Of a DNA stretch of 60,599 nucleotides, positions 2,155 to 54,623 are shown in pieces. Position numbers and translations under genes: made by a program. Within the stretch, counting starts at the first letter, position 1, and each line of letters opens with the position of its first letter. The stretch is from a virus: the IMG/VR virus record IMGVR_UViG_3300045988_080839, positions 1 to 60,599 of that record. One strand, given 5' to 3'. Below the pieces are notes generated by a model. That model was not told the DNA's origin, made no database searches, and saw only the letters and a program-made list of their open reading frames with translations.

Positions 2155-2551
2155 CTAGATGATTCGCTACAATCTCACAATTTGTAGTTACTGCTTCATC
2201 GTGTATGCTTTGGTGGTCGCAAGTGACACACTACTCACAAGTTCTTGTACACTCCACAGTCGTAAATTCCCGACTAAGCCATCGGTACATACCTATAAAT
2301 TCTTTTTTATTGATTAAATACAGGTTTTCATCTAAATAGCTTTTCCTTTCTTAATATTTTTTTGCTACTTGGTTTTCGTAGACTCACACCGTTACTCAAT
2401 CTTTACCATCAAGGTTCTACCCTATAGTTAACAAGACTTTTTCAACTTGTACTGGATTATATTTCCTAAGATTTCAGTGGTTTTAAGTTACCAACTAATA
2501 CTCTGGATTTTGAGTATCTTTGAGTACATTGACTCACATTTAATTCTGTTT

Positions 2552-3136
2552 TTAGTTACTTATATTTCCTCCTAACTTCAATTCATTTCCAGACAATTCG
2601 TAAACTGTCTTAGTCCGTCCGTCTTTCTCATACTGCCTTGACTGGAATCTTCCTTTTATAGTAACTGTCTGCCCTGTTGCTAAATTTTTTGCAAATAAAG
2701 CATTTACTGACCACACAATACACGGTATGCAATCCGTTTTTCCATTCTTCCTGGAAGATACCACTAGCAACTCTGCTATATATCTTCCACTTTGGGTCTG
2801 CCTGAACACTGGTTTTTTGACGATAACACCTGTTATTTCTGTGTGGTTTTCATCTGCTTCAAATACCATTGATATAGATTCTACATGGACAAATAACTCT
2901 AAGTGCGTCCGTTTCCCGTCAAACACCTGTCTACTATGTATAGCACCTGTTATTTTATGAACAGTTCCGTTTTGAATCTGATTTGCAATCCCTTGTTCTG
3001 CGATACATGGAATAATGTCCTCATATCCACTTAGCCGTCTAACAATCATTTGAAAGCTGTAGAATCGGATTTTGCCTACAGTGTGGCTGTATTTAGGTTT
3101 TTCATTCATTCTTCCGCATAGCGTTATCCTGTTCAT
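2552..3136 (-). CDS. Tandem OB-fold, SSB-like DNA-binding protein (195 aa)
   Basis: ORF track 2552..3244. Start moved to MNRITLCGRM, which has an AAGGGAG RBS 7 nt upstream. Two SSB-like repeats, e.g. EITGVIVKKPVFRQTQSGRYIAELLV...DCIPCIVW...TVTIKGRFQSRQYE. Confidence 0.5.
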   Translation of the reverse strand: MNRITLCGRMNEKPKYSHTVGKIRFYSFQMIVRRLSGYEDIIPCIAEQGIANQIQNGTVHKITGAIHSRQVFDGKRTHLELFVHVESISMVFEADENHTEITGVIVKKPVFRQTQSGRYIAELLVVSSRKNGKTDCIPCIVWSVNALFAKNLATGQTVTIKGRFQSRQYEKDGRTKTVYELSGNELKLGGNISN

Positions 3137-3452
3137 CTTCCAACTCCCTTCTGATGTTGAATGCCAGTAGGGAAACAAAACCGCTGTTCGTTTTGAACTC
3201 ACTCCCGATATACTTTTTGTAGGTAGGAGTTCTTGAGTCCGCAAGTTCTACTGTGCGTGTTACAACTTTATGGACTGAACCGCCTGTAATTCCATGTTCA
3301 GATGCAATTTCGTCATACATATCCTGTAGTTTCTTTGTCGGATTTATTATCTTTCCTACAGTCAGTTCCACGATATAGTAGAATCCACGCATACTGGGTT
3401 CTATTCCCATAGATATCAAGGCATTCTCAATTTTTCTTAGCCTGTTGTCCAT
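3102..3452 (-). CDS. Spo0A C-terminal (DNA-binding) domain-like protein with no receiver domain
   Basis: SMGIEPSMRGFYYIVELT, MYDEIASEHGITGGSVHKVVTRTVELA and FKTNSGFVSLLA line up with the Spo0A effector-domain blocks [46 protein letters not shown] and KPTNSEFIAMVA. Confidence 0.65.
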   Translation of the reverse strand: MDNRLRKIENALISMGIEPSMRGFYYIVELTVGKIINPTKKLQDMYDEIASEHGITGGSVHKVVTRTVELADSRTPTYKKYIGSEFKTNSGFVSLLAFNIRRELEDEQDNAMRKNE

Positions 3453-3454
3453 GA

Positions 3455-3562
3455 CTATCCCTCTTCTACTTCAAATCCGACTACATGACCGTCATTAATT
3501 AAGACTCCAACTCCTAAGTCGTCACACATTTTTTCTACTTCTGCAATTGTAAAATCTTCCAT
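3455..3562 (-). CDS. Small hypothetical protein (35 aa, MEDFTIAEVEKMCDDLGVGVLINDGHVVGFEVEEG)
   Basis: Below the ORF-track cutoff. ATG follows GAGAGGGAAAAAGAT. It exactly fills the gap between neighbours (TAGTCATG junction). Confidence 0.4.
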   Translation of the reverse strand: MEDFTIAEVEKMCDDLGVGVLINDGHVVGFEVEEG

Positions 3563-3584
3563 ATCTTTTTCCCTCTCTTCTTAT

Positions 3585-3830
3585 TTAAAATAGCATTGCT
3601 TTTGTCAGTCCTCTTGAAGCCGATTTCTGAAACTGCTTCATGTCCTCTATTACATCTGATTCTGTTCTTTTGGAATCCTCTACAGCCTGCGCAATCAGCA
3701 TTTCTGCTGTCTCTTCGTCAAAGTGCTGTTCAAATCTGAACCGTATTGCTCGGATGATATTCGCAAGGTCAAGGCACATTTCTGTATCTTTACCAATAAA
3801 ATCCACTCTTGAATCATTTGCTATAATCAT
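3585..3830 (-). CDS. Hypothetical protein (81 aa)
   Basis: ORF track. Co-directional, with a 4-nt overlap with the upstream gene. Confidence 0.6.
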   Translation of the reverse strand: MIIANDSRVDFIGKDTEMCLDLANIIRAIRFRFEQHFDEETAEMLIAQAVEDSKRTESDVIEDMKQFQKSASRGLTKAMLF

Positions 3831-4225
3831 GATTCCACCTCTTCTGCTAATTTAGCCATTTCCCAACCGATCATGGCACAAGCGTGTGAACTCCAAGATG
3901 TTCTTCCTGAACGCCATGTGTACACTTTTCTGTTCTCGTATTTTGCAAAATGTTTTTTTTCCCACACTTCTTTTTCACTATCTCTTACCAAAATCGGCGT
4001 ATCGACTGCAACCTTGCTCCAATCAACAGACGGTTCTTCATATTCCTTTTCTGCCCATTCTCTTAACAAAACTTTGCAATCCTTACCCTTTCCACCGAAA
4101 AGGCACTCGGAACATCTTATTTCTCTACAATCGCACGGCTCTCCTGACGTTAAATTTACAGCGATTTCATTTCTTTGCAGAGCAATATCAATAATCTGTT
4201 CTGCAAACTTCTCTCTATTCTTCAT
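3827..4225 (-). CDS. Hypothetical protein (132 aa)
   Basis: ORF track. Protein-like composition within a tightly packed array. Confidence 0.6.
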   Translation of the reverse strand: MKNREKFAEQIIDIALQRNEIAVNLTSGEPCDCREIRCSECLFGGKGKDCKVLLREWAEKEYEEPSVDWSKVAVDTPILVRDSEKEVWEKKHFAKYENRKVYTWRSGRTSWSSHACAMIGWEMAKLAEEVES

Positions 4226-4241
4226 TTCTCAAACCTCACTT

Positions 4242-4970
4242 TCAATTAGTATGATCTCGTCTATTACTGTCTCTATCAATTCGCATCTGACTGTTTTCAG
4301 CGTCTACGGAATCTTTCAAGAATACTGGAGGTTCATATGCATCAATAATTTTTAGAGCCTTATCTAACTGATTCCTTGACAGTGCTTTGTAAGACAGTAC
4401 ATTAAACTGGTACTTTATCTGACGGTATATGTCGCTGTACACCTGTTGTCTTAACGAATTGCTTCGGTATGCAAGGCTATCCTTGCCACCCATTACCTCA
4501 ACTCCCTTTGCTTTCACTGCATGAGTAACCTTATCCATATCCACGCCAAGCAACGGCATTTCCTGTTTAAAACTCTCAAAATCGTTTGTGAGATTGTCCA
4601 CTTTTTCATCAATCTCTATTACTGCCTGATTCTGTAGCTTAATCATTTCCAGTGCCGTCATCGGTTTCTGAACCGTAATGGATTCTTCCATTTCATGAAA
4701 ACGATTAATGTACTTTGCTGTGAACTCCGTACCCTTAACTCCTGTCAGTTTGTGGGCAATAAATTCACAGCCTTTCTTTGTGACATAATAGCAAGGTTGC
4801 GTTTTATTTTGGCTGTTTTGATATGTACCATCTATAAAGAAATCGGACTGTCCAATATTGGCTTGTCCTAATTGGTCTATATAAGTACGAATATCTCTCA
4901 ACAATTTGCTATGGTCTTTTCCGACCATTTCAGCTACTTCCATAGAAGTAATCTTCTGTTCAATATTCAT
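4242..4970 (-). CDS. Rha-family phage regulatory protein / antirepressor
   Basis: Start moved to MNIEQKITSMEVAEMVGKDHSKLLRDI (AAAGGAGAGCC RBS). N-terminal pattern ...QPCYYVTKKGCEFIAHKLTGVKGTEFTAKYINRFHEME is typical of Rha. Paralog of 40628..41302. Confidence 0.75.
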   Translation of the reverse strand: MNIEQKITSMEVAEMVGKDHSKLLRDIRTYIDQLGQANIGQSDFFIDGTYQNSQNKTQPCYYVTKKGCEFIAHKLTGVKGTEFTAKYINRFHEMEESITVQKPMTALEMIKLQNQAVIEIDEKVDNLTNDFESFKQEMPLLGVDMDKVTHAVKAKGVEVMGGKDSLAYRSNSLRQQVYSDIYRQIKYQFNVLSYKALSRNQLDKALKIIDAYEPPVFLKDSVDAENSQMRIDRDSNRRDHTN

Positions 4971-4985
4971 TGGCTCTCCTTTCTG

Positions 4986-4994
4986 TGTTATAAT
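4986..4994 (+). promoter_or_regulatory. Extended -10 element TGTTATAAT for the plus-strand ORF at 5016
   Basis: TGnTATAAT lies 22 nt upstream of the TTG start and 7 nt upstream of AAAGGAGGTG. Confidence 0.45.
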
Positions 4995-5015
4995 CACCTC
5001 AAAGGAGGTGATATT

Positions 5016-5231
5016 TTGAAAAATTTTGATGATTTCGTAGACTTTGTAAATAACTCTGACAAAATACAAAATGAATTATCGAATGTTAATCTGAAATTAG
5101 AAAAGAGGAATTATTCTCTTTCAAATACAGAAGATATTTCAGAGTTAATTGTTTCTGTTCAAAATAATACTTTACAGAAAACAATGAAATTGCTACGCTA
5201 TTATCATGAATGGCTTAATCAAAATGAATAG
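5016..5231 (+). CDS. Hypothetical 71-aa protein on the repressor-sense strand (TTG start)
   Basis: Lies inside ORF-track entry 4872..5231. Consensus RBS AAAGGAGGTG sits 5 nt before the TTG. The helical sequence KNFDDFVDFVNNSDKIQNEL...LLRYYHEWLNQNE is protein-like. Confidence 0.5.
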   Translation: MKNFDDFVDFVNNSDKIQNELSNVNLKLEKRNYSLSNTEDISELIVSVQNNTLQKTMKLLRYYHEWLNQNE

Positions 5232-6603: not shown

Positions 6604-7047
6604 TTACAGCAATCTGTAGTGTGGCTTTTCTTCTTTGAATATCCAGTACCGCAAATAATCGTCAAGAATAATTGCAATCGTTCCTACAATTATCCATAAC
6701 AGGCTGAATGGTAGGCATATCTGCCCTAACAGATTCAACGGCATATTGCTGTAATCCCATACATTCCAACCTAACCATATATTAACGATAAGACCGCATA
6801 AGAACTCTAACAGGGTGATTACTGTAGCAACCTTTATTGATTGCAGGATAAGCGGATAATCCCAGTCTGTGCGTTCGTTCTGTTCTCCTGCATACAGGAA
6901 ACATAAACCGCCAAGAATGAACATTGTCCAATGGCTACGACCACGATATAACAGCTCTATGCACACATAAAGAAAGCCACCTATCGCAAATAGGATAAGT
7001 GGCTTGATAATCTTACGCAATACCTTTACTTGCGTAGATATCCGCAA
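6604..7047 (-). CDS. Polytopic membrane protein (about 4 TM segments); start uncertain (TTG at 7047 or 7020)
   Basis: ORF track. Hydrophobic helices (PLILFAIGGFLYVCIELLY, WTMFILGGLCFLYAG, VATVITLLEFLCGLIVNIWLGW, CLPFSLLWIIVGTIAIIL). Sits between the fibre genes and the immunity region. Confidence 0.65.
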   Translation of the reverse strand: MRISTQVKVLRKIIKPLILFAIGGFLYVCIELLYRGRSHWTMFILGGLCFLYAGEQNERTDWDYPLILQSIKVATVITLLEFLCGLIVNIWLGWNVWDYSNMPLNLLGQICLPFSLLWIIVGTIAIILDDYLRYWIFKEEKPHYRLL

Positions 7048-18218: not shown

Positions 18219-19094
18219 TTATCTTTTCAGGTATTCTCTTGTTACTTTTCCTGCCTTGCAATCTACCGTTATTCCTACACGTTTTTGGAAAACTCCGATT
18301 GCACTGGCTGTATCATTTCCCAATATACCGTCAATATTGCTCTTGCCTTTTGCATTTGTGGCAGACAGGCACTTATGATAGATAAGTTCCGTCTGTAGCC
18401 ACTTCACATCATCCCCACGCATACAGGGTACTTTCTTATAAAGGATTCTCGTAGGCTCTGGATATGGGTTATTGTGCGTGTCGTAGACGTTCTGTAATTC
18501 GTTTAATTCACGATACCATACATTCATATCAACATTGCCATTAACGCCGCTTACAGCTCCTTTAGACGTGTACTGCCACCCTATCAAACTATCAATCTGT
18601 GGCTGATATTTCATGTCCATATTTCCAGTGTTCTTACCGTATGCCGCAATCCACAACGGACATTTAAGCGTACCATACGGTTTAATATAGGAATTGTAGA
18701 AAGACTTTCCAGTATACACACCGAATGCAAGACCATAACTTCTGATAACATCACCGTAAGCGTTGACAATGTCAATCAGCTTGCTTCTAAGTCCTTTCTG
18801 GCAGTTGTCCTCAACGTCTAGCCATACCATTGTCTCACGACCATTAAGCACTTCTGCTACTTTCCTTGCATCATTTCTAGCCTTTGTAACTGTTGTCGCA
18901 TAGCTGTAGTTGTAAACGCCCTGTATCGTCAATCCGTTTGCTTTACAGCCTGTCCAGTTAGCTTCAAACTGCTTATCACGGTTCAAATCTTTACGGATGA
19001 TTTTAAGGATGGCAAACTGGATGCCGCCTGCCTTGACTTTTGCCCAGTCAATAGTTCCCTGATATGCCGATACATCTATACCGATATAACTCAT
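18219..19094 (-). CDS. GH25 muramidase with a C-terminal peptidoglycan-binding domain (endolysin or tail-associated lysin)
   Basis: ORF track. YIGIDVSAYQGTIDW and GVYNYSYA/DVE blocks are typical of GH25. The C-terminal GDDVKWLQ...DGILGNDTASAIGVFQ is PG_binding_1-like. ATGA overlap with the chaperone T frame. Confidence 0.85.
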   Translation of the reverse strand: MSYIGIDVSAYQGTIDWAKVKAGGIQFAILKIIRKDLNRDKQFEANWTGCKANGLTIQGVYNYSYATTVTKARNDARKVAEVLNGRETMVWLDVEDNCQKGLRSKLIDIVNAYGDVIRSYGLAFGVYTGKSFYNSYIKPYGTLKCPLWIAAYGKNTGNMDMKYQPQIDSLIGWQYTSKGAVSGVNGNVDMNVWYRELNELQNVYDTHNNPYPEPTRILYKKVPCMRGDDVKWLQTELIYHKCLSATNAKGKSNIDGILGNDTASAIGVFQKRVGITVDCKAGKVTREYLKR

Positions 19095-39536: not shown

Positions 39537-39860
39537 TTAAATTGAATTAGTACGCAACTTTGCCAGCAAATCATCTAGCAGATATATTATCTCTTTCCCA
39601 TAATCAGCCATGAAATTACACAATCGTTCTTCCAAATCTATAGGTATAGACATATCATGCTCAAAGCACATGACATGAGTTAGTTCATGACAGATTACAC
39701 GTTCTGTCATATATGCAGACATACCGCTTGCTATTGATACTGTCTTAGTGTTGTTGTCTGTAACTCCAAATGTGTACGCTCCGTCACTGCGCTGTAAGTC
39801 TTGGCTATTGGCAGGAACAAAAGCTAATTGCCATGTCTGACCGTTTACCATAAAATACAT
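39537..39860 (-). CDS. Small HExxH zinc-metallopeptidase-like protein (107 aa)
   Basis: ORF track. HELTH motif. Same architecture as 21498..21815. Lies downstream of the antirepressor genes. Confidence 0.55.
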   Translation of the reverse strand: MYFMVNGQTWQLAFVPANSQDLQRSDGAYTFGVTDNNTKTVSIASGMSAYMTERVICHELTHVMCFEHDMSIPIDLEERLCNFMADYGKEIIYLLDDLLAKLRTNSI

Positions 39861-39920: not shown

Positions 39921-40613
39921 TTATAATTTTCCACTTTCCTTTAAGGATTTTTCGGCACATTCCAAATATTTGTCTGCGCACTCTGATAATTCAGGGAAGT
40001 AACTAATCATGTCCATGGAATATCTTGGTGGATATCCCTTTTCCTGTTCATAGATAGCGGCGGCTTCATCAAGGTCGTATTCTTCTCCAACAAACAACAG
40101 GATTCTATGATACAACTGTGATTTTTTACCGTGTATTGCCTGGACTATCCTTTCAATCCTGCGCTGATTCCTTGCATACCATGTAGGTGTCTTTGGCACA
40201 GGTGTCATGCTGACATGATAGTTGCAATCCTCTATCTTTGTTTCTGCTGTTTCCATCTGATTCTTGACCGCAAAGTAAGAGTTTACCAGTTGACGCTGTA
40301 CTTCCCATGCTAAATCATCCGTAAAAACTTTTACTATCATGAGATATCCGCTTTCTGTAAAGAGATATGTTTTCATATTGGGATTTCCGACTATTTTTTC
40401 GTTGGGGGAATATCGTTCCCCTAACTCTTTTCTTGTAATTTCAAAGTAATCCGTTCCAAGTATAAAATGACTCTTATGCTTTTGAAATGACTTCTTTGCC
40501 GTATCGGATTTTTTATGATGAACCCTGTCAATATCTTTCATAGTGACAACTCTCATACCGTTATATTCTTTGATTGCCATTTCTGTATTTTCAATCTTTA
40601 CAAGTTCTGCCAT
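39921..40613 (-). CDS. Antirepressor-like protein with an ORF6N/KilA-N-type N-terminal domain (230 aa)
   Basis: ORF track. IKEYNGMRVVTMKDIDRVHHKKSDTAKKSF.KHKSHFILGTDYFEI...YLFTESGYLMIVKVFTDDLAWEVQRQLVNSYF. Confidence 0.65.
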   Translation of the reverse strand: MAELVKIENTEMAIKEYNGMRVVTMKDIDRVHHKKSDTAKKSFQKHKSHFILGTDYFEITRKELGERYSPNEKIVGNPNMKTYLFTESGYLMIVKVFTDDLAWEVQRQLVNSYFAVKNQMETAETKIEDCNYHVSMTPVPKTPTWYARNQRRIERIVQAIHGKKSQLYHRILLFVGEEYDLDEAAAIYEQEKGYPPRYSMDMISYFPELSECADKYLECAEKSLKESGKL

Positions 40614-40627
40614 ATCAGTTCCCCCTA

Positions 40628-41302
40628 TTATTCTTCATCAAGGCAACATTTCATATCATTGTAGAGTATTTCATCAGCCATTTTTCTTAGTTGTGGGAAA
40701 TAAGATATAACTTCTGAATTACTCCACGGTAACCTATCATTCAATGCTATAAACTTTTTCCTTGCGCTGTCAAAATTGTAATACTCATTAATGCCCTCTA
40801 ATATATGGTGCATATACTCTCTTTTTGTCATGTCAAACTTATCTCTGACATAATTAATCTTTGATTTTCTGGTGGAGTACCAATCAGTTTCCCTTTCAAG
40901 TAGCAAATTTTCCGGGATTTTTCCAAGTGTGTTGTTCTGTTCCTGCTGTACTTGCTTTAAAGTATCTTCCATTTCGTGGAAACGCTTAATGTATTTTGCT
41001 GTGAACAAAACTCCTTTTTCTCCTGTAAATTTGTTTGCTAAAAATTCACAGCCCATCTTAGTTACTTCGTAGCATGGCATTGTTTTATTTTGTTCATTAA
41101 CATAAGACGATTTAATAAAAAATTCGGACGAACCCATTTGGGCTTCACCTAAAATTTCTATATATCCCTTAATGTGTTTCCCTTTTTCTGTTCTTCCCTC
41201 TAACTTTCTTAAAATTTTAGAGTGTGATGTTTCCATCATATCTGCAATATCTAAAGTAGATATTGTGTATTCTTCGTTGCTAACCTTGATTTCTTTATTC
41301 AT
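40628..41302 (-). CDS. Rha-family regulatory protein / antirepressor (second copy)
   Basis: ORF track 40628..41344. Start moved to MNKEIKVSN. MPCYEVTKMGCEFLANKFTGEKGVLFTAKYIKRFHEME parallels 4242..4970. Confidence 0.7.
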   Translation of the reverse strand: MNKEIKVSNEEYTISTLDIADMMETSHSKILRKLEGRTEKGKHIKGYIEILGEAQMGSSEFFIKSSYVNEQNKTMPCYEVTKMGCEFLANKFTGEKGVLFTAKYIKRFHEMEDTLKQVQQEQNNTLGKIPENLLLERETDWYSTRKSKINYVRDKFDMTKREYMHHILEGINEYYNFDSARKKFIALNDRLPWSNSEVISYFPQLRKMADEILYNDMKCCLDEE

Positions 41303-41315
41303 AAATGCGCCCCCA

Positions 41316-41558
41316 TTAAACAAATGGAATATAAGTTCCGTCAATTATGCCAATAGCCAGTTTCATACCTTCAACCGCATAAAATCTGTTAGAATCAACA
41401 GCATTGTCAATAAACTCTTGCTCTATTGTCTCGTAAAGTTCAGGGCTTAAAATTCCTTTTAGCTTATCAAGAGTAGGCTTAAAAAATTCCATATACTTGT
41501 CTGTCATTTTTCTTTCTTCAAACTGTCCTTCATAAACGATTTCTAAAAATTTGTCCAT
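41316..41558 (-). CDS. Hypothetical protein (80 aa)
   Basis: ORF track. GTGAGGTTTTAATA RBS. Confidence 0.55.
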   Translation of the reverse strand: MDKFLEIVYEGQFEERKMTDKYMEFFKPTLDKLKGILSPELYETIEQEFIDNAVDSNRFYAVEGMKLAIGIIDGTYIPFV

Positions 41559-41962: not shown

Positions 41963-41992
41963 AAAAAAGGCTAGAGTTATTAGCCCTAGCCT
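41963..41992 (-). terminator. Strong rho-independent terminator closing the cargo operon
   Basis: Minus strand: AGGCTAG-loop-CTAGCCT, then TTTTTT, 7 nt after the stop at 41999. Confidence 0.7.
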
Positions 41993-41998
41993 ATTTCC

Positions 41999-42670
41999 TT
42001 ACATCTTAGCCGCAAGTGTGGTAATCTTTGTCTTTGCCATTTGCCGCTCTTCTGGTGTCATATCTGCCAGTAATCCTGTCAAATCCTCTGACAGTTCTTT
42101 CAGATATTCTTCCAGACTGTGCATATTGGCTTCTTTGTCCTGCGGGGTAGTTCCCTTATGCATTTCTTTTGTTTCCATGTAGCCCTTACGCATCATGCCA
42201 GCTCTGCCCTCTCTGCTGTCTCTCATGTCGCCGTCTTTGTGCATGGGTTCTGTCTCGGTATAGTACATACGTCCCCTTGATGCCCTGTCAAGGTCACGCA
42301 TACGCTCACGTTCAGACATGGAATCCCAGTCTTGTAAATCTTCCCTGTTCATCATGTGCATATAAGGCGGTTCTTCATAGCCACGTCTGCCTACATAAGT
42401 TCCTCTGCCCTTTGGTGCATATCTGCCAGTGGTCTTATAACGGTAATCGTCATAAAATCTGCGGTCAAGCATTCCCAACACATCTTCTACGTCAGATTCT
42501 TCCATGATGTTTGTCAATGTGCGGTAATACATGGCTTCCGCAAGGTCTTTAAGCATATCTGTGACTTTTCCCATCTCATCCGTATTCACGTTCTCAATGC
42601 CTTTGTCAAATTCGGACTTTGCACATTCAGACAGTTTTTCAATCATATCATGCATTCTTTTGATATCCAT
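41999..42670 (-). CDS. Met/Arg/Asp/Tyr-rich protein (223 aa), cargo operon gene 5
   Basis: ORF track. Low-complexity middle (RRGYEEPPYMHMMNREDLQDWDSMSERERMRDLDRASRGRMYY). Confidence 0.6.
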   Translation of the reverse strand: MDIKRMHDMIEKLSECAKSEFDKGIENVNTDEMGKVTDMLKDLAEAMYYRTLTNIMEESDVEDVLGMLDRRFYDDYRYKTTGRYAPKGRGTYVGRRGYEEPPYMHMMNREDLQDWDSMSERERMRDLDRASRGRMYYTETEPMHKDGDMRDSREGRAGMMRKGYMETKEMHKGTTPQDKEANMHSLEEYLKELSEDLTGLLADMTPEERQMAKTKITTLAAKM

Positions 42671-42683
42671 AATATACGCCCCC

Positions 42684-43118
42684 TTATGCTTCCCTTGTTG
42701 CGATTAAGTTACTGTTCTGAACCTGTATTGTCTGTGCAGAAGTATTTTCAACAGATACTGTGCTACAGCATCCCCTTGGAACATCAATGTATGCCTGTGC
42801 GCTTACGTTGAAAAGATTCTCGACAGCCGCAGGGGTAACTATCATTTTTGTTGACTGCAACGGTTCTCCGTCTACAGAAATAGCAAGTGATATGGCATCC
42901 ACTGTACCGCCTGTCGGTATCTGTATATTCCCCGAATATCCCACAAGATATCTTGCCCTGCACTGGTTTGTAATTCCTCTTAATTTAATAATTCCACTGC
43001 CCTGTCTATGAACGATGCAATTTGTACCGTTTACCGCTGTTTCCGTAAAAGCTACATCCTGTCCAGCTTCTACTGTTTGTAATGCAATTGCTGTAATTTC
43101 CATAAAATTTACCTCCAT
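42684..43118 (-). CDS. Beta-rich protein resembling the C-terminal (TNF/C1q-like) domain of BclA-type exosporium proteins, cargo gene 4
   Basis: ORF track. Pattern V.F....V.G.....H..GSG.I.L.......Y.V.Y...I......D.I.L.I.V.G.....T........ENLFNVS....I.V....STV.V.N.S...I.V. Confidence 0.45.
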   Translation of the reverse strand: MEVNFMEITAIALQTVEAGQDVAFTETAVNGTNCIVHRQGSGIIKLRGITNQCRARYLVGYSGNIQIPTGGTVDAISLAISVDGEPLQSTKMIVTPAAVENLFNVSAQAYIDVPRGCCSTVSVENTSAQTIQVQNSNLIATREA

Positions 43119-43216
43119 AAAATTGAAAAGGGCAGACTATACTGTCTGCCCTTTAGTTTCCTGTAACACTGCTATGCGCAGACATAATCTTTGATTAAGT
43201 TACCGATATTCTGTTG

Positions 43217-43993
43217 TTAGCATCCACAGCCTGTATTACATCCACATCCGTTGTATGCATAACCGTAGAGGTTAGATGCAGGAAATGCTGGTACAGGTGT
43301 CGGTCTTACAGCATCAATAATCTGATTCGTCTGCGTAGCCATAGCGGTTGTCAGAAGTGCATTCTGTCTATCCTGTGAAGCGGCTCTGCGTAAATCATTA
43401 TTCTCTGCCTGTAAGGATGCGATCTTGTCATTGGTCAAGAAGTCAAGAATTGCTCTTGTTCCTGCCTGCTGGCTGTCGATAATGTCTCTTGTATTGCTGT
43501 TCATGGTGTTCTGCAAAGCACAGGTGTTAGTTGCTAAATTGTAATTAATTCCCTGGATAGCTTCACGGGTTTCACAGCAACAGTTAGCAAGCTGTGACTG
43601 CAAAGCATTGGTATTCTGCATATTAGCGACCGTATCAGCGTTGATCGCCTGCTGAATGCCGAATCCGGTCTGCAAAATGTTTGTGTTGATGCCATTCATG
43701 CCGTTTTGCACTGCATAAAATCCGTCACAAAGTCCGTTTGTAATGCCATCAAGTTTTGACACAACCGCCTGATTATCAAATCCGCGCTGAATTTCGCTTC
43801 CGACACCGCCATTCATTCCGTTTCCTCCAAATCCGTTACCGAATCCACCCCATCCAAAGATAGCGAAGATAACGATAATGAACCATAACCATGAGCCTTC
43901 TGCGCCCCATCCGTTGTTATTTCCATTACCGTCAATATTCGCGACTAATGGAACGGATGCACAATTGTTTGAAAACATACTTTTTACCTCCAT
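43217..43993 (-). CDS. Gly/Asn-rich single-TM protein with an Asn/Gln-rich helical region and a Cys-rich C-terminus, cargo gene 3
   Basis: ORF track. GSWLWFIIVIFAIFGWGGFGNGFGGNGMNGG, an internal CCC, and a C-terminal NGCGCNTGCGC. Confidence 0.6.
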   Translation of the reverse strand: MEVKSMFSNNCASVPLVANIDGNGNNNGWGAEGSWLWFIIVIFAIFGWGGFGNGFGGNGMNGGVGSEIQRGFDNQAVVSKLDGITNGLCDGFYAVQNGMNGINTNILQTGFGIQQAINADTVANMQNTNALQSQLANCCCETREAIQGINYNLATNTCALQNTMNSNTRDIIDSQQAGTRAILDFLTNDKIASLQAENNDLRRAASQDRQNALLTTAMATQTNQIIDAVRPTPVPAFPASNLYGYAYNGCGCNTGCGC

Positions 43994-44026
43994 TAAATTT
44001 ATTTCTAATCTTGCAAGAATTAGCTT

Positions 44027-44263
44027 TTATAAATTAAACTGTTTTTTAATTTGGTTCATTGCTTCATCAGGATTCAATCCCTTTTCTTTGCACAGATTCC
44101 TAGCCATCTGCTCAATGCCCTTGGAGTCTCCGTTCTGCGCCATCTGTATGGCATTCTTGGCTATTGGATTCTGCATTAATTGGCTGTTACCCATAAGCTG
44201 TTGTACCATCTGCTGTGGATTTCCACTTTTCATCATTTGCATTAACTGCATTGGATTAAACAT
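44027..44263 (-). CDS. Met/Gln-rich small protein (78 aa), cargo gene 2
   Basis: ORF track. MFNPMQLMQMMKSGNPQQMVQQLMGNSQLMQNP. Confidence 0.55.
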   Translation of the reverse strand: MFNPMQLMQMMKSGNPQQMVQQLMGNSQLMQNPIAKNAIQMAQNGDSKGIEQMARNLCKEKGLNPDEAMNQIKKQFNL

Positions 44264-44265
44264 AC

Positions 44266-44754
44266 TTAATCATCCTTTCTTTGCGTCTGTGAAGTTTTTC
44301 TTTGGGATTGCAAAGATTTTTCTAACTGCCCCAGCCTGTCAGATATTTCATCAAACTTGCTCATAATACCCTCTGTAGCTTCGTCAGAAAGCTCACATTT
44401 CAATTTTTCTGTATCGGTCGGTACATTTTTAAGCTCATTGTCCAAAACAGGCTTATAAGTAACTGTGCGGATTGTACCGTCTGCATTCCAGCTCTTGGCG
44501 TATACTTCTGACAGGTCCTGCTTTGGAAAAAACGCAACACTACCGTCCATAGGTACATCATTTGCTGTTATCTGACTCATCTCTGTAATTATTTTTCCGT
44601 TAATTCCCTGTACAATCTGATTCTGCTGGTAATTGTTTGGTGTGTTCTGCTGATAATCTATTGCTCTATTTTGCACCTGTGCCAGTGGGTTATAATACTG
44701 CGGATAGACCTGCTGGTTCTGCTGTAGGTAATATGGATTCACATACGGTTGCAT
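44266..44754 (-). CDS. Protein with a Gln/Asn/Tyr/Pro-rich N-terminus (162 aa), cargo gene 1
   Basis: ORF track. MQPYVNPYYLQQNQQVYPQYYNPLAQVQNRAIDYQQNTPNNYQQNQ followed by a globular domain. Confidence 0.6.
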   Translation of the reverse strand: MQPYVNPYYLQQNQQVYPQYYNPLAQVQNRAIDYQQNTPNNYQQNQIVQGINGKIITEMSQITANDVPMDGSVAFFPKQDLSEVYAKSWNADGTIRTVTYKPVLDNELKNVPTDTEKLKCELSDEATEGIMSKFDEISDRLGQLEKSLQSQRKTSQTQRKDD

Positions 44755-45180
44755 ATTGGTTCTCCTTTTTCAACTTTTCAGTCTCATATAATATGTTCGT
44801 ATCATCATAAGATAGGTATTTAGTGATCTGTTCCTGCTGGTTGCATATTCTCATTAACATCTTTTAATACTTCCTGTATCGCATGTGTCATGGCTACTTG
44901 ATAGATTGTCGGTATCGCCTGTACATCTTCCCTTGCGCATAACTTCTCTATGATTTCGTCCGTTTCAATATTCATGGGTTCTATTCCTCCCTTTGATTTA
45001 AGTGTAAAATAAAAAAAGCCACTATAAGTGACAAATAAATGCCATTATAGTGACTCTAAAGTGTAGTAAATATGCGCATTAGCACTAACCCCATTCCATG
45101 GGTATGGCGTTACGTTACTGATAATAAAAGTTTCCTATATTAGCAGTAACAATATTCCATCGGATAGCATTATGTATGTG

Positions 45181-46542
45181 CTAAAAATCTTTCAATCTTA
45201 TTTCAATATTTCCATTGCTAACTATTATTTTTTCGATTATACTTTTCAGTAAAGTGTTTTTCTGTTTCTTGTCGATATCAGCCCAGATATCGGCGAGATT
45301 TTTTATGTTCTTAAATACATTTTGTCTAGTTTTATTTGTTTCTATTGCAGATTCTTCCTTGATCTGTTCACGGATATCTTCTATTACTTTCTCAATTTCT
45401 TTAATCATGCTGATAACATCATCATTGCCCTCTGCATACAGGTTATATAACCTTTTACGCTTAGTCTGCTCTTTTTCTAATTGCCCTTGCAATATTTCCA
45501 ACTTGGACTCTTTTACTCTTGGCTTATATTCTGATATATTAGCAGATATTAAAAGTATTTCGTCCTCTACAGCTTTTTCAATATCCGAAGCCCATTCCAA
45601 TGTATTATTACAATTTGGATTGTGGTTAGGAAGATAATGCAAGTCCTTATTTCTGGAACAGCAGTAAATCTTATGCTTTCCATGCGTCCACTTCTGATAT
45701 CTCATAGCGCATCCGCACACGCCGCAATAGCATAAGCCTGTAAGAAGATTAGTTTGTAAGTTGTTGCAATTTACCCTCTTTTTGCTCCTGTTTCTTCTGA
45801 ACTGTTGTGCTTTTTCAAAGGTTTCTTTATCAAAAATAGGTTCATGCAATCCTTGATATAGTTTACCCTTATACGGTATCATTCCAATGTTTACAGGGCT
45901 TGTGAGTACCTGCTTCACAACAAATTCGCTTTTAAATCCTAACATATCACGGATTTTTACGTCTGAATACCCCTGCAAGAATAAGTCCATAGCCCTGTTA
46001 GCCTGTTCTTTTCTCTCCGGAATCGGTATAAGCGTTCCTGTTTCCTTGCTGTAGTTATAGCAGTAAGGTGTATTGCCACCGCCCATCCAGTAACCTTTTT
46101 TGACACGTTCTAACATACCGCCACGCATTCTAAGTAACATGGTATTCTTGTCTAGTTGTGCGAATACCGCCATCATTTGAGTGTACGCCTGCTCCATTGG
46201 GTTATCATAGCTGATACTATCATGTACACATTTAAACTCTACGTTATTCTTTAAAAACACACGCTCAATCAGATAGATACCGTCTACCATGCTACGTGAT
46301 ATTCTGTCAAGCTTAAACGCAACAACATAGTTTACACGCTTACGATCACAGTCTGATACAAGCCTTTGCAATTCTGGTCTGTCCATATTTGCGCCTGTAT
46401 ACCCATCATCAATGTACCAATCTGTAATTACCAGTTCATTTTTTCTGCAATAGTTTTCAATATCTCTCCTTTGGCTGTCTAATCCGTTTCCTTCTTCTGC
46501 CTGTTTCTCCGTAGAAACACGCATGTATGCGACACATTCCAT
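45181..46542 (-). CDS. Large serine recombinase (integrase)
   Basis: ORF track 45181..46596. Start moved to MECVAYMRVSTEKQ (GGAGGAATAAGA RBS). Resolvase catalytic block YMRVSTEKQ...LDSQ...DDGYTGANMDRPELQRL, a Cys-rich recombinase/zinc domain and a coiled coil. Confidence 0.85.
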   Translation of the reverse strand: MECVAYMRVSTEKQAEEGNGLDSQRRDIENYCRKNELVITDWYIDDGYTGANMDRPELQRLVSDCDRKRVNYVVAFKLDRISRSMVDGIYLIERVFLKNNVEFKCVHDSISYDNPMEQAYTQMMAVFAQLDKNTMLLRMRGGMLERVKKGYWMGGGNTPYCYNYSKETGTLIPIPERKEQANRAMDLFLQGYSDVKIRDMLGFKSEFVVKQVLTSPVNIGMIPYKGKLYQGLHEPIFDKETFEKAQQFRRNRSKKRVNCNNLQTNLLTGLCYCGVCGCAMRYQKWTHGKHKIYCCSRNKDLHYLPNHNPNCNNTLEWASDIEKAVEDEILLISANISEYKPRVKESKLEILQGQLEKEQTKRKRLYNLYAEGNDDVISMIKEIEKVIEDIREQIKEESAIETNKTRQNVFKNIKNLADIWADIDKKQKNTLLKSIIEKIIVSNGNIEIRLKDF

Positions 46543-46619
46543 TCTTATTCCTCCATCAGATATAAAAGAATGCGCCATATTTACTACATGACGCATTCTA
46601 CACTATTATATTTTTTTCG

Positions 46620-53376: not shown

Positions 53377-54282
53377 TTACGCAGCCTCCTGTAGTGAAGC
53401 ATAGTATTGCTGTCGCTTAACCATCGGAGGTAACCCCCCGTTAGCAGAGCAAATCCTCCGGTTATTCCAATAGCTGATGAAGTATCTCCAGATGAGGGTT
53501 TTTAACTGTTCTACAGTCATTGTGGTGGTGTCATAACGCCCATAAAGTAATTCCTCTTTGAAGCGTGCCCACATGCTTTCACATCTGGCATTGTCATGGC
53601 ATCTGCCACCGGCACTGTTCATGCTCTGAAGAATACCATATTTATTGATTGCTTTACGATATAACTCGCTTGTGTACTGTGTGCCTCTGTCACTGTGAAG
53701 AACAGCTCCACGAAGCATAGGATATGCCTTGTAAGCATTATCTAAAGTTTGCTCACAAAGGGTAGCCTTCATATTTGTATCCATAGCAAGCCCCAGCACT
53801 GCCAGATCGTAGCAGTCAAAGATAGCTGAAACATACAGTTTTCCATCGGAAGCTTTTATTTCGGTCATGTCTGTAATACATTTTTCAAGAGGTTTTTGGG
53901 CTGAGAAATCTCGTTTGATTAAATCATCTGATTTACGGGCTTCTTTATCAGCTTTTGTAATGCCGTTGGGTTTGCGTTTCGGCTTATGATTAAGACCAAG
54001 TTCTTCCATGACACGATAAACAGTTCTTTCACCGGGAATGTGTACATCTTCAGGATGTTTTAGCTGTAATGCCTGATACATACGGATTCTTCCATACGTG
54101 TCGTTGCATTCATCCTCACTACATATATCAATCATCGCATCTGCCAGTGCCTGATATTTCCAAGGAGCATCTTTTGTTTTTAGGTATTTGTTAAATGCCT
54201 GTCTGGAAACATGAAGCACTTTACAATAAAAAGAAATTTTGCCCTTAATCCTGCCGTCATCCGTTTTAATTGCAATAAACAT
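53377..54282 (-). CDS. IS3-family transposase OrfB (DDE/rve core)
   Basis: ORF track. ...ITDMTEIKASDGKLYVSAIFDCYD...VLHSDRGTQYTS...NARCESMWARFKEE is a DDE pattern. Confidence 0.85.
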   Translation of the reverse strand: MFIAIKTDDGRIKGKISFYCKVLHVSRQAFNKYLKTKDAPWKYQALADAMIDICSEDECNDTYGRIRMYQALQLKHPEDVHIPGERTVYRVMEELGLNHKPKRKPNGITKADKEARKSDDLIKRDFSAQKPLEKCITDMTEIKASDGKLYVSAIFDCYDLAVLGLAMDTNMKATLCEQTLDNAYKAYPMLRGAVLHSDRGTQYTSELYRKAINKYGILQSMNSAGGRCHDNARCESMWARFKEELLYGRYDTTTMTVEQLKTLIWRYFISYWNNRRICSANGGLPPMVKRQQYYASLQEAA

Positions 54283-54623
54283 TAATCTCTGTTTTTTGCT
54301 GACTTCCGACGGCTGGCTGCGAAAAAAGCACTTGCTTCCTCAAGAAATTCGTTTTCTTCCTTTAAACGGCGTATTTCCTTATCCTGCTCTTTAACACGCT
54401 TCCTGAGTTCGATAAGCTCATCATTAAGGGATAAAGCATTCTTGGGGGTATGAACTGCTTCATTTGCACTGAGGCGGCCTTCCTTAAATGCTTTGATCCA
54501 TGTGTACATAGTACCTTTAGGGATACCTAATTCGTTAGCTGCTTTATGCCCGCCAATTTCCTGTGCAAGCTTTACCGCCTGTGCTTTAAATTCGTTGTCA
54601 TAAGATTTTTGGTTCTGTGCCAT
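54282..54623 (-). CDS. IS3-family transposase OrfA (HTH plus leucine zipper)
   Basis: ORF track. YDNEFKAQAVKLAQEIGGHKAANELGIPKGTMYTWIK and LRKRVKEQDKEIRRLKEENEFLEEASAFFA. Confidence 0.85.
   Translation of the reverse strand: MAQNQKSYDNEFKAQAVKLAQEIGGHKAANELGIPKGTMYTWIKAFKEGRLSANEAVHTPKNALSLNDELIELRKRVKEQDKEIRRLKEENEFLEEASAFFAASRRKSAKNRD
54291..54297 (-). promoter_or_regulatory. IS3 frameshift heptamer A_AAA_AAC
   Basis: The zero frame reads GCA AAA AAC. The -1 frame continues KKQRLMFIAIKTDD into OrfB. Confidence 0.65.

Follow-up and report, generated by a model that had tools for sequence, protein, structure and literature searches.

The viral DNA analyzed here (IMG/VR record IMGVR_UViG_3300045988_080839, positions 1 to 60,599; the whole stretch of 60,599 nt is referred to as the window) harbors a block of five minus-strand genes, designated P1 to P5, that lies between a serine recombinase gene and a group of regulatory genes. 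This block represents a portable accessory cassette found among phages of gut Clostridia (Lachnospiraceae, Oscillospiraceae, and Clostridium perfringens), and P3 followed by P4 is the invariant core of this cassette. We describe the cassette as an accessory moron-type phage module, abundant and uncharacterized, in which a protein with a predicted TNF-like knob fold (P4) is encoded next to a membrane protein with a helical rod (P3). A first-pass annotation of the window had portrayed the block as a cargo operon of codirectional genes whose products resemble spore-surface proteins. All five minus-strand open reading frames (ORFs) were confirmed at the coordinates that it gave, and a sixth conserved gene, P0s, was added upstream. 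The components of the block, with protein lengths in amino acids (aa), are as follows:

44820..44975, minus strand: P0s, a 51-aa acidic protein that heads the block, with a strong ribosome-binding site (AAAGGGAGG)
44266..44754, minus strand: P1, 162 aa
44027..44263, minus strand: P2, 78 aa
43217..43978, minus strand: P3, 253 aa (ORF open to 43993)
43127..43154, unstranded: palindromic hairpin between P3 and P4, perfect, with an 11-bp stem that includes 6 G-C pairs
42684..43103, minus strand: P4, 139 aa (ORF open to 43118)
41999..42670, minus strand: P5, 223 aa
41968..41992, minus strand: intrinsic terminator closing the block, with a 9-bp stem (5 G-C pairs) followed by TTTTTT

The starts of P3 and P4 were each placed at the sixth codon of the ORF (43978 and 43103) because a GGAGG lies 8 nt upstream of the ATG at these positions and because homologs match the corrected lengths of 253 and 139 aa.

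The ORFs of the block are real genes and not chance reading frames, since P3 and P4 have thousands of homologs and the order of the genes is kept in many genomes. A 90%-identity protein collection contains 5112 P4 homologs and 7781 P3 homologs, most of them on contigs of 57 to 62 kb, which the window matches in size. At 50% identity, an exhaustive search yielded 666 P4 clusters, nearly all of them standalone proteins of ~140 aa; among the 150 listed of these 666 clusters, nearly all are ~135 to 160 aa long and match across the whole protein. A single exact P4 sequence was found on 143 contigs. Linkage was counted in 80 loci from species-representative genomes. P3 is located directly upstream of P4 in ~75 of them, and P1, P2, P5, and the gene for a small HExxH protein recur in the same order. 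Manual reading indicates that these last four genes are often present in forms so divergent that a simple search misses them, as in loci L017 and L096.

The surroundings of the cassette vary greatly. An integrase gene adjoins it in Dulem virus 39 and in 6 of the 80 loci, and in Roseburia faecis it borders on host genes at the edge of the prophage. In L096 and in at least 11 of the 80 loci, its neighbors are an SPP1-gp7-like minor head gene on one side and the scaffold gene on the other. P1 to P4 follow the lysin genes in Butyrivibrio phage Ceridwen, and the complete set from P1 to P5 and the HExxH gene is found at the late-operon end of L094, a large virulent-type phage. P1-, P2-, and P3-like genes are also encoded by C. 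perfringens phages (XP41-N3, CPD1, and others), and about 12 crAss-like (Crassvirales) genomes encode a P3 homolog with the full architecture. The cassette occurs in siphovirus-type phages and P3 also in crAss-like podoviruses. Because the internal order is kept across these genomic positions and morphotypes, the cassette appears to be an autonomous accessory module. It displays features of a moron: its own terminator, a promoter-like consensus match, adjacency to attP in the window, and a position that varies among phages. In the open-access literature we found no description of the cassette, and megablast revealed no close annotated relative of the phage. Among conserved gene sets without a known function in human-gut phages, the cassette belongs to the more abundant ones, and P3 links phages of Firmicutes with crAss-like phages.

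Some of the carriers have peculiarities of their own. L094 (ena:ERZ28654221 scaffold_181, 168 kb) encodes a DNA polymerase III alpha subunit, NrdD/NrdG, and a 2086-aa leucine-rich repeat protein. In L094 (in the P1, P3, and P5 homologs) and in crAss phage cr52_1 (L008, gp23), in-frame stops are located within clearly conserved genes, which indicates stop-codon reassignment in both. The R. faecis prophage (L002:18198-20762, GCA_046997445.1) contains a TniB/AAA_22-like ATPase beside a protein of more than 628 aa, and no serine integrase is found near its cassette end. It may be a transposable (Mu-like) phage, in which case the cassette would span different integration systems.

An AlphaFold (AF2) model of P4, calculated from an alignment of 129 homologous sequences, is all-beta and has a mean predicted local distance difference test score (pLDDT) of 93.9 and a predicted template modeling score (pTM) of 0.86. 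When this model was compared with the PDB by Foldseek, the first match was the F-BclA C-terminal domain (9h38; E = 5e-8, TM score 0.71-0.74), followed by BxpB (8d02), ExsFA (7r1m/7r5i), and BclA (1wck/2r6q/2z5w/3tyj; TM score ~0.72), with EDA-A1, 4-1BBL, and C1q/cerebellin ranking after these. The top 22 PDB matches are all BclA, F-BclA, BxpB, ExsFA, or EDA-A1 (TM score 0.63-0.74), and the short tail fiber of cyanophage A-1(L) (8ke9) is also among the structural matches. On the model, P4 is a standalone beta-jelly-roll with a TNF/C1q/BclA-C-like fold. The first-pass annotation, which had assigned this fold to a 144-aa protein (139 aa after the start correction) from its hydrophobic pattern, was therefore right on this point.

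The likeness to BclA is at the level of the fold and not of family membership. The best matches, the BclA C-terminal domains and ExsFA/BxpB, superimpose with TM scores of 0.70-0.74 but share only 12-15% sequence identity with P4; neither phmmer nor a 71-sequence profile searched against all PDB chains retrieved a BclA, ExsF, or TNF chain, and Pfam and NCBIfam contained no family matching at E <= 1. Moreover, P4 consists of the 139-aa domain alone, with neither a collagen-like GXX stalk nor an N-terminal exosporium-targeting region. For these reasons, P4 is not counted as a member of the BclA family. Comparison with the viral models in BFVD gave standalone gut-phage proteins of 135-142 aa as the best matches (TM score 0.8-0.87), one of them named "BclA protein," and at lower ranks the C-terminal knobs of collagen-repeat proteins from Caudovirales and giant viruses, as well as tail fibers. 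As judged from these models, the TNF/C1q/BclA-type jelly-roll is a common viral fiber-knob fold. A correct fold match to spore proteins need not bring their function.

The second core protein, P3, contains 14% Asn, 12% Gly, and 10 Cys, with a CCC motif and the C-terminal tail NGCGCNTGCGC, and its single hydrophobic segment (Kyte-Doolittle 1.78) lies between Gly/Asn-rich stretches; the Gly/Asn-rich composition, single transmembrane (TM) segment, CCC, and C-terminal motif of the first-pass annotation were all confirmed. Members of the family share a layout in which a short N terminus and a TM helix are followed by a helical rod of ~150 residues; the rod bears an invariant CCC-[ED]-x-R motif, and an RPxPVPA[FY] motif and the Gly/Cys-rich tail come after it. 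Motifs of the family are QRGFDNQ, CCC-[ED]-x-R-x-AI-x-GVNYN, NTRDIID, RAILD, and RPxPVPAY, together with the Gly/Cys tail. In the AF2 model, which was obtained from a shallow alignment and is of low confidence (pLDDT 47.7), residues 29-41 form the TM helix and residues 71-101 and 109-224 form further helices. A sequence search of the PDB with P3 found no relative. The P3 homolog of crAss phage cr52_1, gp23, matches P3 by BLASTP (E = 2e-15) from the TM segment to the C terminus and contains the motifs SCCCDVRESIAGVNNN and RPCPVPAY. The crAss homologs sit among structural genes and, in cr52_1, near a LysB/FtsL-like gene. In both cr52_1 and XP41-N3, the place of P4 after P3 is taken by a different small protein of about the same size. 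These proteins, cr52_1 gp24 and a 125-aa protein of XP41-N3, were considered as remote P4 relatives and rejected (hhalign probability < 1%), as was crAss gp22 as a relative of P5 (BLASTP E = 4.2).

The remaining products are of unusual composition, as the residue counts for P1, P2, P3, and P5 bear out. P1 comprises a Q/N/Y/P-rich low-complexity N terminus, a small conserved domain with the alignment pattern ANDVPMDG...FPK.D.SEIY.K.W.ADGTI, and a C-terminal coiled-coil helix; homologs are present in Ceridwen and C. perfringens phage XP41-N3, and a P1 profile found nothing in Pfam or the PDB beyond coiled-coil noise. P2 is 17% Gln, 14% Met, and 13% Asn, has a clear homolog (NPMQLMQMM...) in XP41-N3, Dulem virus 39, and L094, and matches no family in Pfam, PHROGs, or NCBIfam. 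An STI1/Sgt2-like role for P2 as a chaperone of TM segments was considered from composition, found no Pfam match, and is speculation that we do not claim. P5, rich in Glu, Met, Asp, and Arg, has helical N- and C-terminal segments around an Arg/Asp/Tyr/Gly/Met-rich center that varies in length and is probably disordered; its alignment contains the conserved motifs RRxYDxYRY, GRMYY, RDSREGRSG, and LExYMxELS, and a P5 profile gave no meaningful match in Pfam or the PDB. By sequence analysis, P1, P2, P4, and P5 contain neither a signal peptide nor a TM segment. None of the five proteins matches anything significantly in Pfam, NCBIfam, or the PDB sequences. In PHROGs, P1 matches phrog_21718 (E = 1e-11), P3 phrog_16490 (E = 1e-57), and P4 phrog_20016 (E = 3e-65), all labeled "unknown function."

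Two further small proteins accompany the cassette elsewhere and are absent from the window. In about half of the cassettes a protein of ~125 aa (phrog_3754, unknown function) is encoded 1-2 kb upstream of P3 (L006:7716-8093, L017:2139-2507, L096:7015-7392, and ~45 others). With its invariant residues Asp17-Cys18, His98, and Asp109, it looks like a small thiol hydrolase; a 26-member profile matched no C39 chain in the PDB and no Pfam family. Both N-terminal types of P3 have it in their cassettes, one type in 13 of 16 loci and the other in 33 of 58. A scheme in which P3 carries a double-glycine leader cleaved by a C39-type peptidase, for which the 125-aa protein was the candidate, is supported by neither homology nor co-occurrence. 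The other, of 66-76 aa, is encoded between P3 and P4 or after the gene at the P4 position (L001:6550-6780 in Dulem virus 39, L007:7839-8039 in XP41-N3, L021:6690-6923); its short hydrophobic N-terminal segment and coiled-coil tail recall the layout of small holin-like proteins.

The flanks of the block agree with its earlier placement between the integrase and regulatory genes: the serine recombinase (45181-46596) lies on one side and, as identified with Pfam, Rha, ORF6N, and HExxH genes lie on the other. The relevant features are listed here:

45181..46542, minus strand: large serine recombinase, 453 aa from Met19 (ORF open to 46596), with Resolvase, Recombinase, and Zn_ribbon_recom domains
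45085..45125, unstranded: attP region, separating the block from the integrase stop; the crossover is within or adjacent to the core CCCATGG (45096-45102)
45018-45032 (within 45006..45034), minus strand: weak integrase terminator, overlapped by a promoter-like TTGTCA-17-TATTTT just upstream of P0s
39537..39860, minus strand: HExxH protein, 107 aa, with a weak IrrE/ImmA-like match (Pfam Peptidase_M78, E = 0.004)

The block lies outside the structural region of the window, in a cargo (moron) position beside attP and the integrase. The strong terminator that had been proposed to end it was confirmed at 41992-41968, where the 9-bp stem is followed by the T-run. The promoter-like site at 45006..45034 comes from a consensus scan and reading of the sequence only, with no evidence of function. 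Terminators or hairpins are found within the cassette as well as at its end, both in the window and in L096. The hairpin at 43127-43154, which scored terminator-like on both strands, could be a putative internal attenuator or RNA-stability element. P1 also has a P0s homolog of ~50 aa in front of it elsewhere, as in Dulem virus 39 and the R. faecis prophage. At the opposite end, relatives encode an HExxH protein of ~105 aa directly 3' of P5 (L001, L002, L089, L094, and ~19 genome loci), whereas the window homolog at 39537-39860 is set off by ~2.1 kb. A Rha/ORF6N pair (39921-41344) seems to have entered the window at this point, where relatives have P5 and the HExxH gene side by side. The phage has two Rha-family genes (4242-5069 and 40628-41344, both minus strand), one with Rha and ORF6C and one with Rha alone, in addition to the ORF6N protein.

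The explanation that we favor, tentatively, is that the cassette is an accessory module that may build a membrane-anchored P3 stalk and a TNF-like P4 knob at the host envelope, for exclusion, masking, or remodeling. The Cys-bearing helical rod of P3 would probably be the coiled-coil stalk of a single-pass membrane protein, and P4 would be the knob, its fold being one that is normally trimeric and normally located at the distal end of a fiber. Together, P3 and P4 would form a membrane-anchored assembly in the infected or lysogenic cell, in effect a two-gene version of the type-II TNF-ligand/BclA design, with the low-complexity proteins P1, P2, and P5 as possible assembly or accessory factors. 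Such an assembly might exclude other phages or mask the cell against them, or it might remodel the envelope, and none of these roles would be specific to spores. Located beside attP, the cassette would come to lie at the prophage edge, where its own promoter-like site could drive moron-type expression. The unrelated small protein that takes the place of P4 in cr52_1 and XP41-N3 fits a conserved stalk with an exchangeable head, and a terminator of its own together with internal terminators or hairpins is what would be expected for a moron. The P4 fold and P3 architecture make this a concrete, testable model, for which Ceridwen on Butyrivibrio fibrisolvens DSM 3071 offers a cultured system.

Several points weigh against the stalk-and-knob model. 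The P3-P4 complex, its trimeric state, and the membrane location and function of the assembly are predictions from sequence and models, and the P3 model is itself of low confidence (pLDDT 47.7). The TM flanks of P3, examined in ~75 homologs, are ~60% Gly plus Asn and nearly free of Lys and Arg, so that they do not fix its topology. A knob outside the cell would need an export route, because P4 has no signal peptide or TM segment. P3 and P4 are 55-65% identical across host families, which is unusual for masking or exclusion proteins, as these tend to diversify. Finally, the frequent placement of the cassette inside late or head operons also fits a role in the virion or in egress.

A virion role is the alternative that survives best, though we regard it as unlikely. 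P3 and P4 would then be a head or tail fiber, with a coiled-coil shaft and a TNF-like knob, or else packaged ejection proteins in which the hydrophobic segment of P3 enters the target membrane. The location of the cassette between portal/minor head and scaffold/capsid genes in many phages, and of crAss P3 among structural genes, speaks for such a role, as does the fact that TNF-like knobs cap many viral fibers; the Cys-rich motifs could cross-link an extracellular fiber. However, in the window the block is outside the structural region, next to attP, and bounded by terminators, and in L096 terminators within the cassette break the late operon. It would also be unusual for a structural part to be common to phages of unrelated morphotypes, and fibers do not typically contain a strongly hydrophobic TM segment between Gly-rich stretches. 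Depositors have annotated crAss homologs as spike or fiber, but the "spike" labels probably stem from coiled-coil similarity. The published virion proteomes do not cover those C. perfringens phages that carry P3.

We consider it rather improbable that the cassette is an accessory to lysis or egress, in which P3 would disrupt membranes like a large single-TM holin or a fusogen, its architecture recalling T4 holin T or an i-spanin, with the other proteins as regulators. P3 does combine a short N terminus and a single TM segment with a large C-terminal domain that contains Cys. Three placements suit this idea: the cassette comes directly after the lysins in Ceridwen, closes the late operon in L094, and is near the LysB/FtsL-like gene in cr52_1. 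Yet the position of the cassette varies and is often far from lysins, no holin or spanin family of Pfam, PHROGs, or NCBIfam is matched, and Gram-positive hosts need no spanin. In the window, a canonical GH25 endolysin (18219-19094) is encoded ~24 kb away, with small genes beside it, and for this reason we rejected the cassette as the main lysis system. This endolysin gene (minus strand; GH25 muramidase plus PG_binding_1) lies upstream of a 1165-aa gene, far from the tail-fiber end, and only a 4-TM protein (6604-7047, PF06541) follows the fiber genes, an unusual placing of lysis genes.

Analysis of the attachment site led to a side finding that may matter more than the cassette. A near-identical prophage (90-95% DNA identity) is present in L090, a 385-kb contig of a Roseburia-type Lachnospiraceae host. 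There, the host genes murD, ftsW, murA, ftsQ, ftsZ, spoIIGA, and sigE are followed by a 100-aa sigma fragment that ends in ...KFSTYAVPM/ACG and a stop, and phage DNA starts at CCCATGG, so that the prophage, with its cassette end, directly adjoins the 5' half of sigG (L090:7672-8000). Similarity between the window and L090 begins at window position 45110, and left of the core L090 has host sigG sequence. The 3' half of sigG, with a MIIGEI[KR]RYLRD start, is found beside the cassette in L011 (4421-4998), an isolate of Lachnospira intestinalis (CLA-AA-H89B), and in L027 (1553-4140), a metagenome-assembled genome with adjacent spoIIGA-sigE. When the sigma halves were rejoined, the product scored 441 bits against the NCBIfam SigG equivalog (cut-off 372), and the upstream gene passes the SigE equivalog. 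These junctions indicate that the phage lineage integrates inside sigG (spoIIIG), within the codons ...YAVPM/IIGEI... of sigma region 2, and that all three genomes are hit at one and the same codon. Because the same phage arm joins the 5' half of sigG in L090 and the inverted 3' half in L011 and L027, both orientations of insertion occur, which fits the palindromic core. Expression of the cassette by read-through from the sigG promoter was considered as a conserved arrangement and rejected, as the orientation in L090 differs from that in L011 and L027 and a weak terminator intervenes.

The window itself is the free or circular form of the phage, since contigs of phage length (~60.7 kb), in which attP is intact, are the only ones that contain the exact integrase. 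The best NCBIfam matches of the integrase are XisF and Ccr, below their cut-offs, and its 453-aa form is the one on record. In L027, the sigG 3' half and a ylmC/ymxH-like gene (2418-4085) are inverted relative to spoIIGA-sigE. Insertion alone does not account for this arrangement, which might stem from an inversion mediated by the prophage or from an artifact of assembly. An IS3-family insertion sequence (53377-54623, minus strand), with an rve core and HTH_21 in a 301-aa protein preceded by a 113-aa ORF, lies in the early region of the window. No report of a prophage that splits sigG was found in the open-access literature. In common gut Lachnospiraceae whose sigG is split by a prophage, sporulation, and hence transmission from host to host, would depend on excision of the phage.

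Deposition of the products on the spore surface of the lysogenic host, the reading offered by the first-pass annotation, must be weighed against this background. Here, P4 would be a BclA/ExsF-like surface protein with Cys-, Tyr-, and Gln-rich coat-like partners, and lysogenic conversion would be the outcome. It is in keeping with this that the best structural matches of P4 are precisely the BclA C-terminal domains and ExsFA/BxpB, that the proteins lack signal peptides as do coat proteins of the mother cell, and that the host has spoIIGA, sigE, sigG, and spo0A. The lineage inserts into sigG, with the L090 block directly downstream of the truncated gene and in the same direction, and the phage carries a Spo0A_C-like gene. 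That gene, the reported Spo0A DNA-binding-domain homolog at 3102..3452, was confirmed by its Spo0A_C match. It encodes 116 aa on the minus strand, only the Spo0A C-terminal domain with no receiver domain (Pfam Spo0A_C E = 2.9e-6, just above the cut-off). Truncated genes of the Spo0A_C type have already been described in gut phages (PMC10294663).

The distribution of the homologs, however, makes a spore-coat role quite improbable. Bacteroidales, which crAss-like phages infect, and Butyrivibrio do not form spores. The homologs are not confined to phages of spore formers: P1 to P4 are present in Ceridwen and P3 is present in the ~12 crAss-like genomes, and it is these relatives in phages of nonsporulating bacteria that render the role unlikely and that leave the proposal of a module altering the host spore surface not borne out. 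The Butyrivibrio lineage is reported to have lost sporulation genes. Ceridwen has been seen only in lytic growth and was judged virulent by its authors (PMC7372960). The occurrence of the cassette in Ceridwen, in the large virulent-type phage, and inside head modules weighs in the same direction, because virulent-type phages gain nothing from remodeling spores. Furthermore, no protein of the block shows sequence similarity to a coat or exosporium family in Pfam, NCBIfam, or the PDB, and in Pfam and NCBIfam none of the five matches the CotY/ExsY/CdeC-type coat families. P4 lacks the collagen-like stalk and N-terminal targeting region of BclA, and its fold is a common viral knob. Nor is the orientation to sigG kept, being divergent in L011 and L027, and spore maturation would be blocked for as long as a prophage interrupts sigG. 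We hold it to be very doubtful that the phage takes over sporulation in three ways at once, by splitting sigG, by an effector-only Spo0A homolog, and by building a BclA/ExsF-like protein and its Cys-, Tyr-, and Gln-rich partners, expressed from the prophage edge, into the outer layers of the spore, with the cassette co-opted in other phages for another envelope role.

Comparison with known systems places the cassette among four of them. With BclA and ExsFA/BxpB of the Bacillus cereus-group exosporium, P4 shares the fold and, with ExsFA/BxpB, the form of a standalone domain of ~140 aa. Unlike these proteins, the P4 family is phage-borne, is found in gut Clostridia, and is paired with the membrane protein P3 (~75 of 80 loci). 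The TNF/C1q-like knobs of viral fibers have the same fold as P4, which is likewise encoded beside a helical rod protein that could be a shaft. In contrast to such fibers, however, shaft and knob are separate genes, the shaft contains a TM segment, and in the window the genes lie outside the structural module.

Morons and superinfection-exclusion genes beside att sites, such as those for the membrane-anchored Sie proteins of lactococcal phages and Ltp of a Streptococcus thermophilus phage, provide the third comparison. The cassette is similar in its location next to attP and the integrase, its own terminator, its membrane-anchored product, its variable presence and position, and its placement at the prophage edge after integration. 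It differs in being a unit of five to seven genes with no homology to known Sie proteins, in being carried also by virulent-type phages and within late operons, and in its unusual conservation.

The insertion in sigG, lastly, recalls the elements that intervene in sporulation genes (skin/sigK, SPbeta/spsM, and gin/gerE), since this phage likewise has a large serine recombinase and inserts inside the coding sequence of a sporulation gene. The mother-cell genome is discarded, and sigG encodes the forespore sigma factor. The described elements of this kind lie in mother-cell genes such as sigK, spsM, and gerE (PMC5595907). In L090, L011, and L027, we find the serine recombinase and the insertion in a sporulation ORF but not a mother-cell-specific target. 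Thus, unlike skin, SPbeta, and gin, the phage targets the forespore-specific sigG, exists as a complete 60-kb phage also on free contigs, and is inserted in both orientations.

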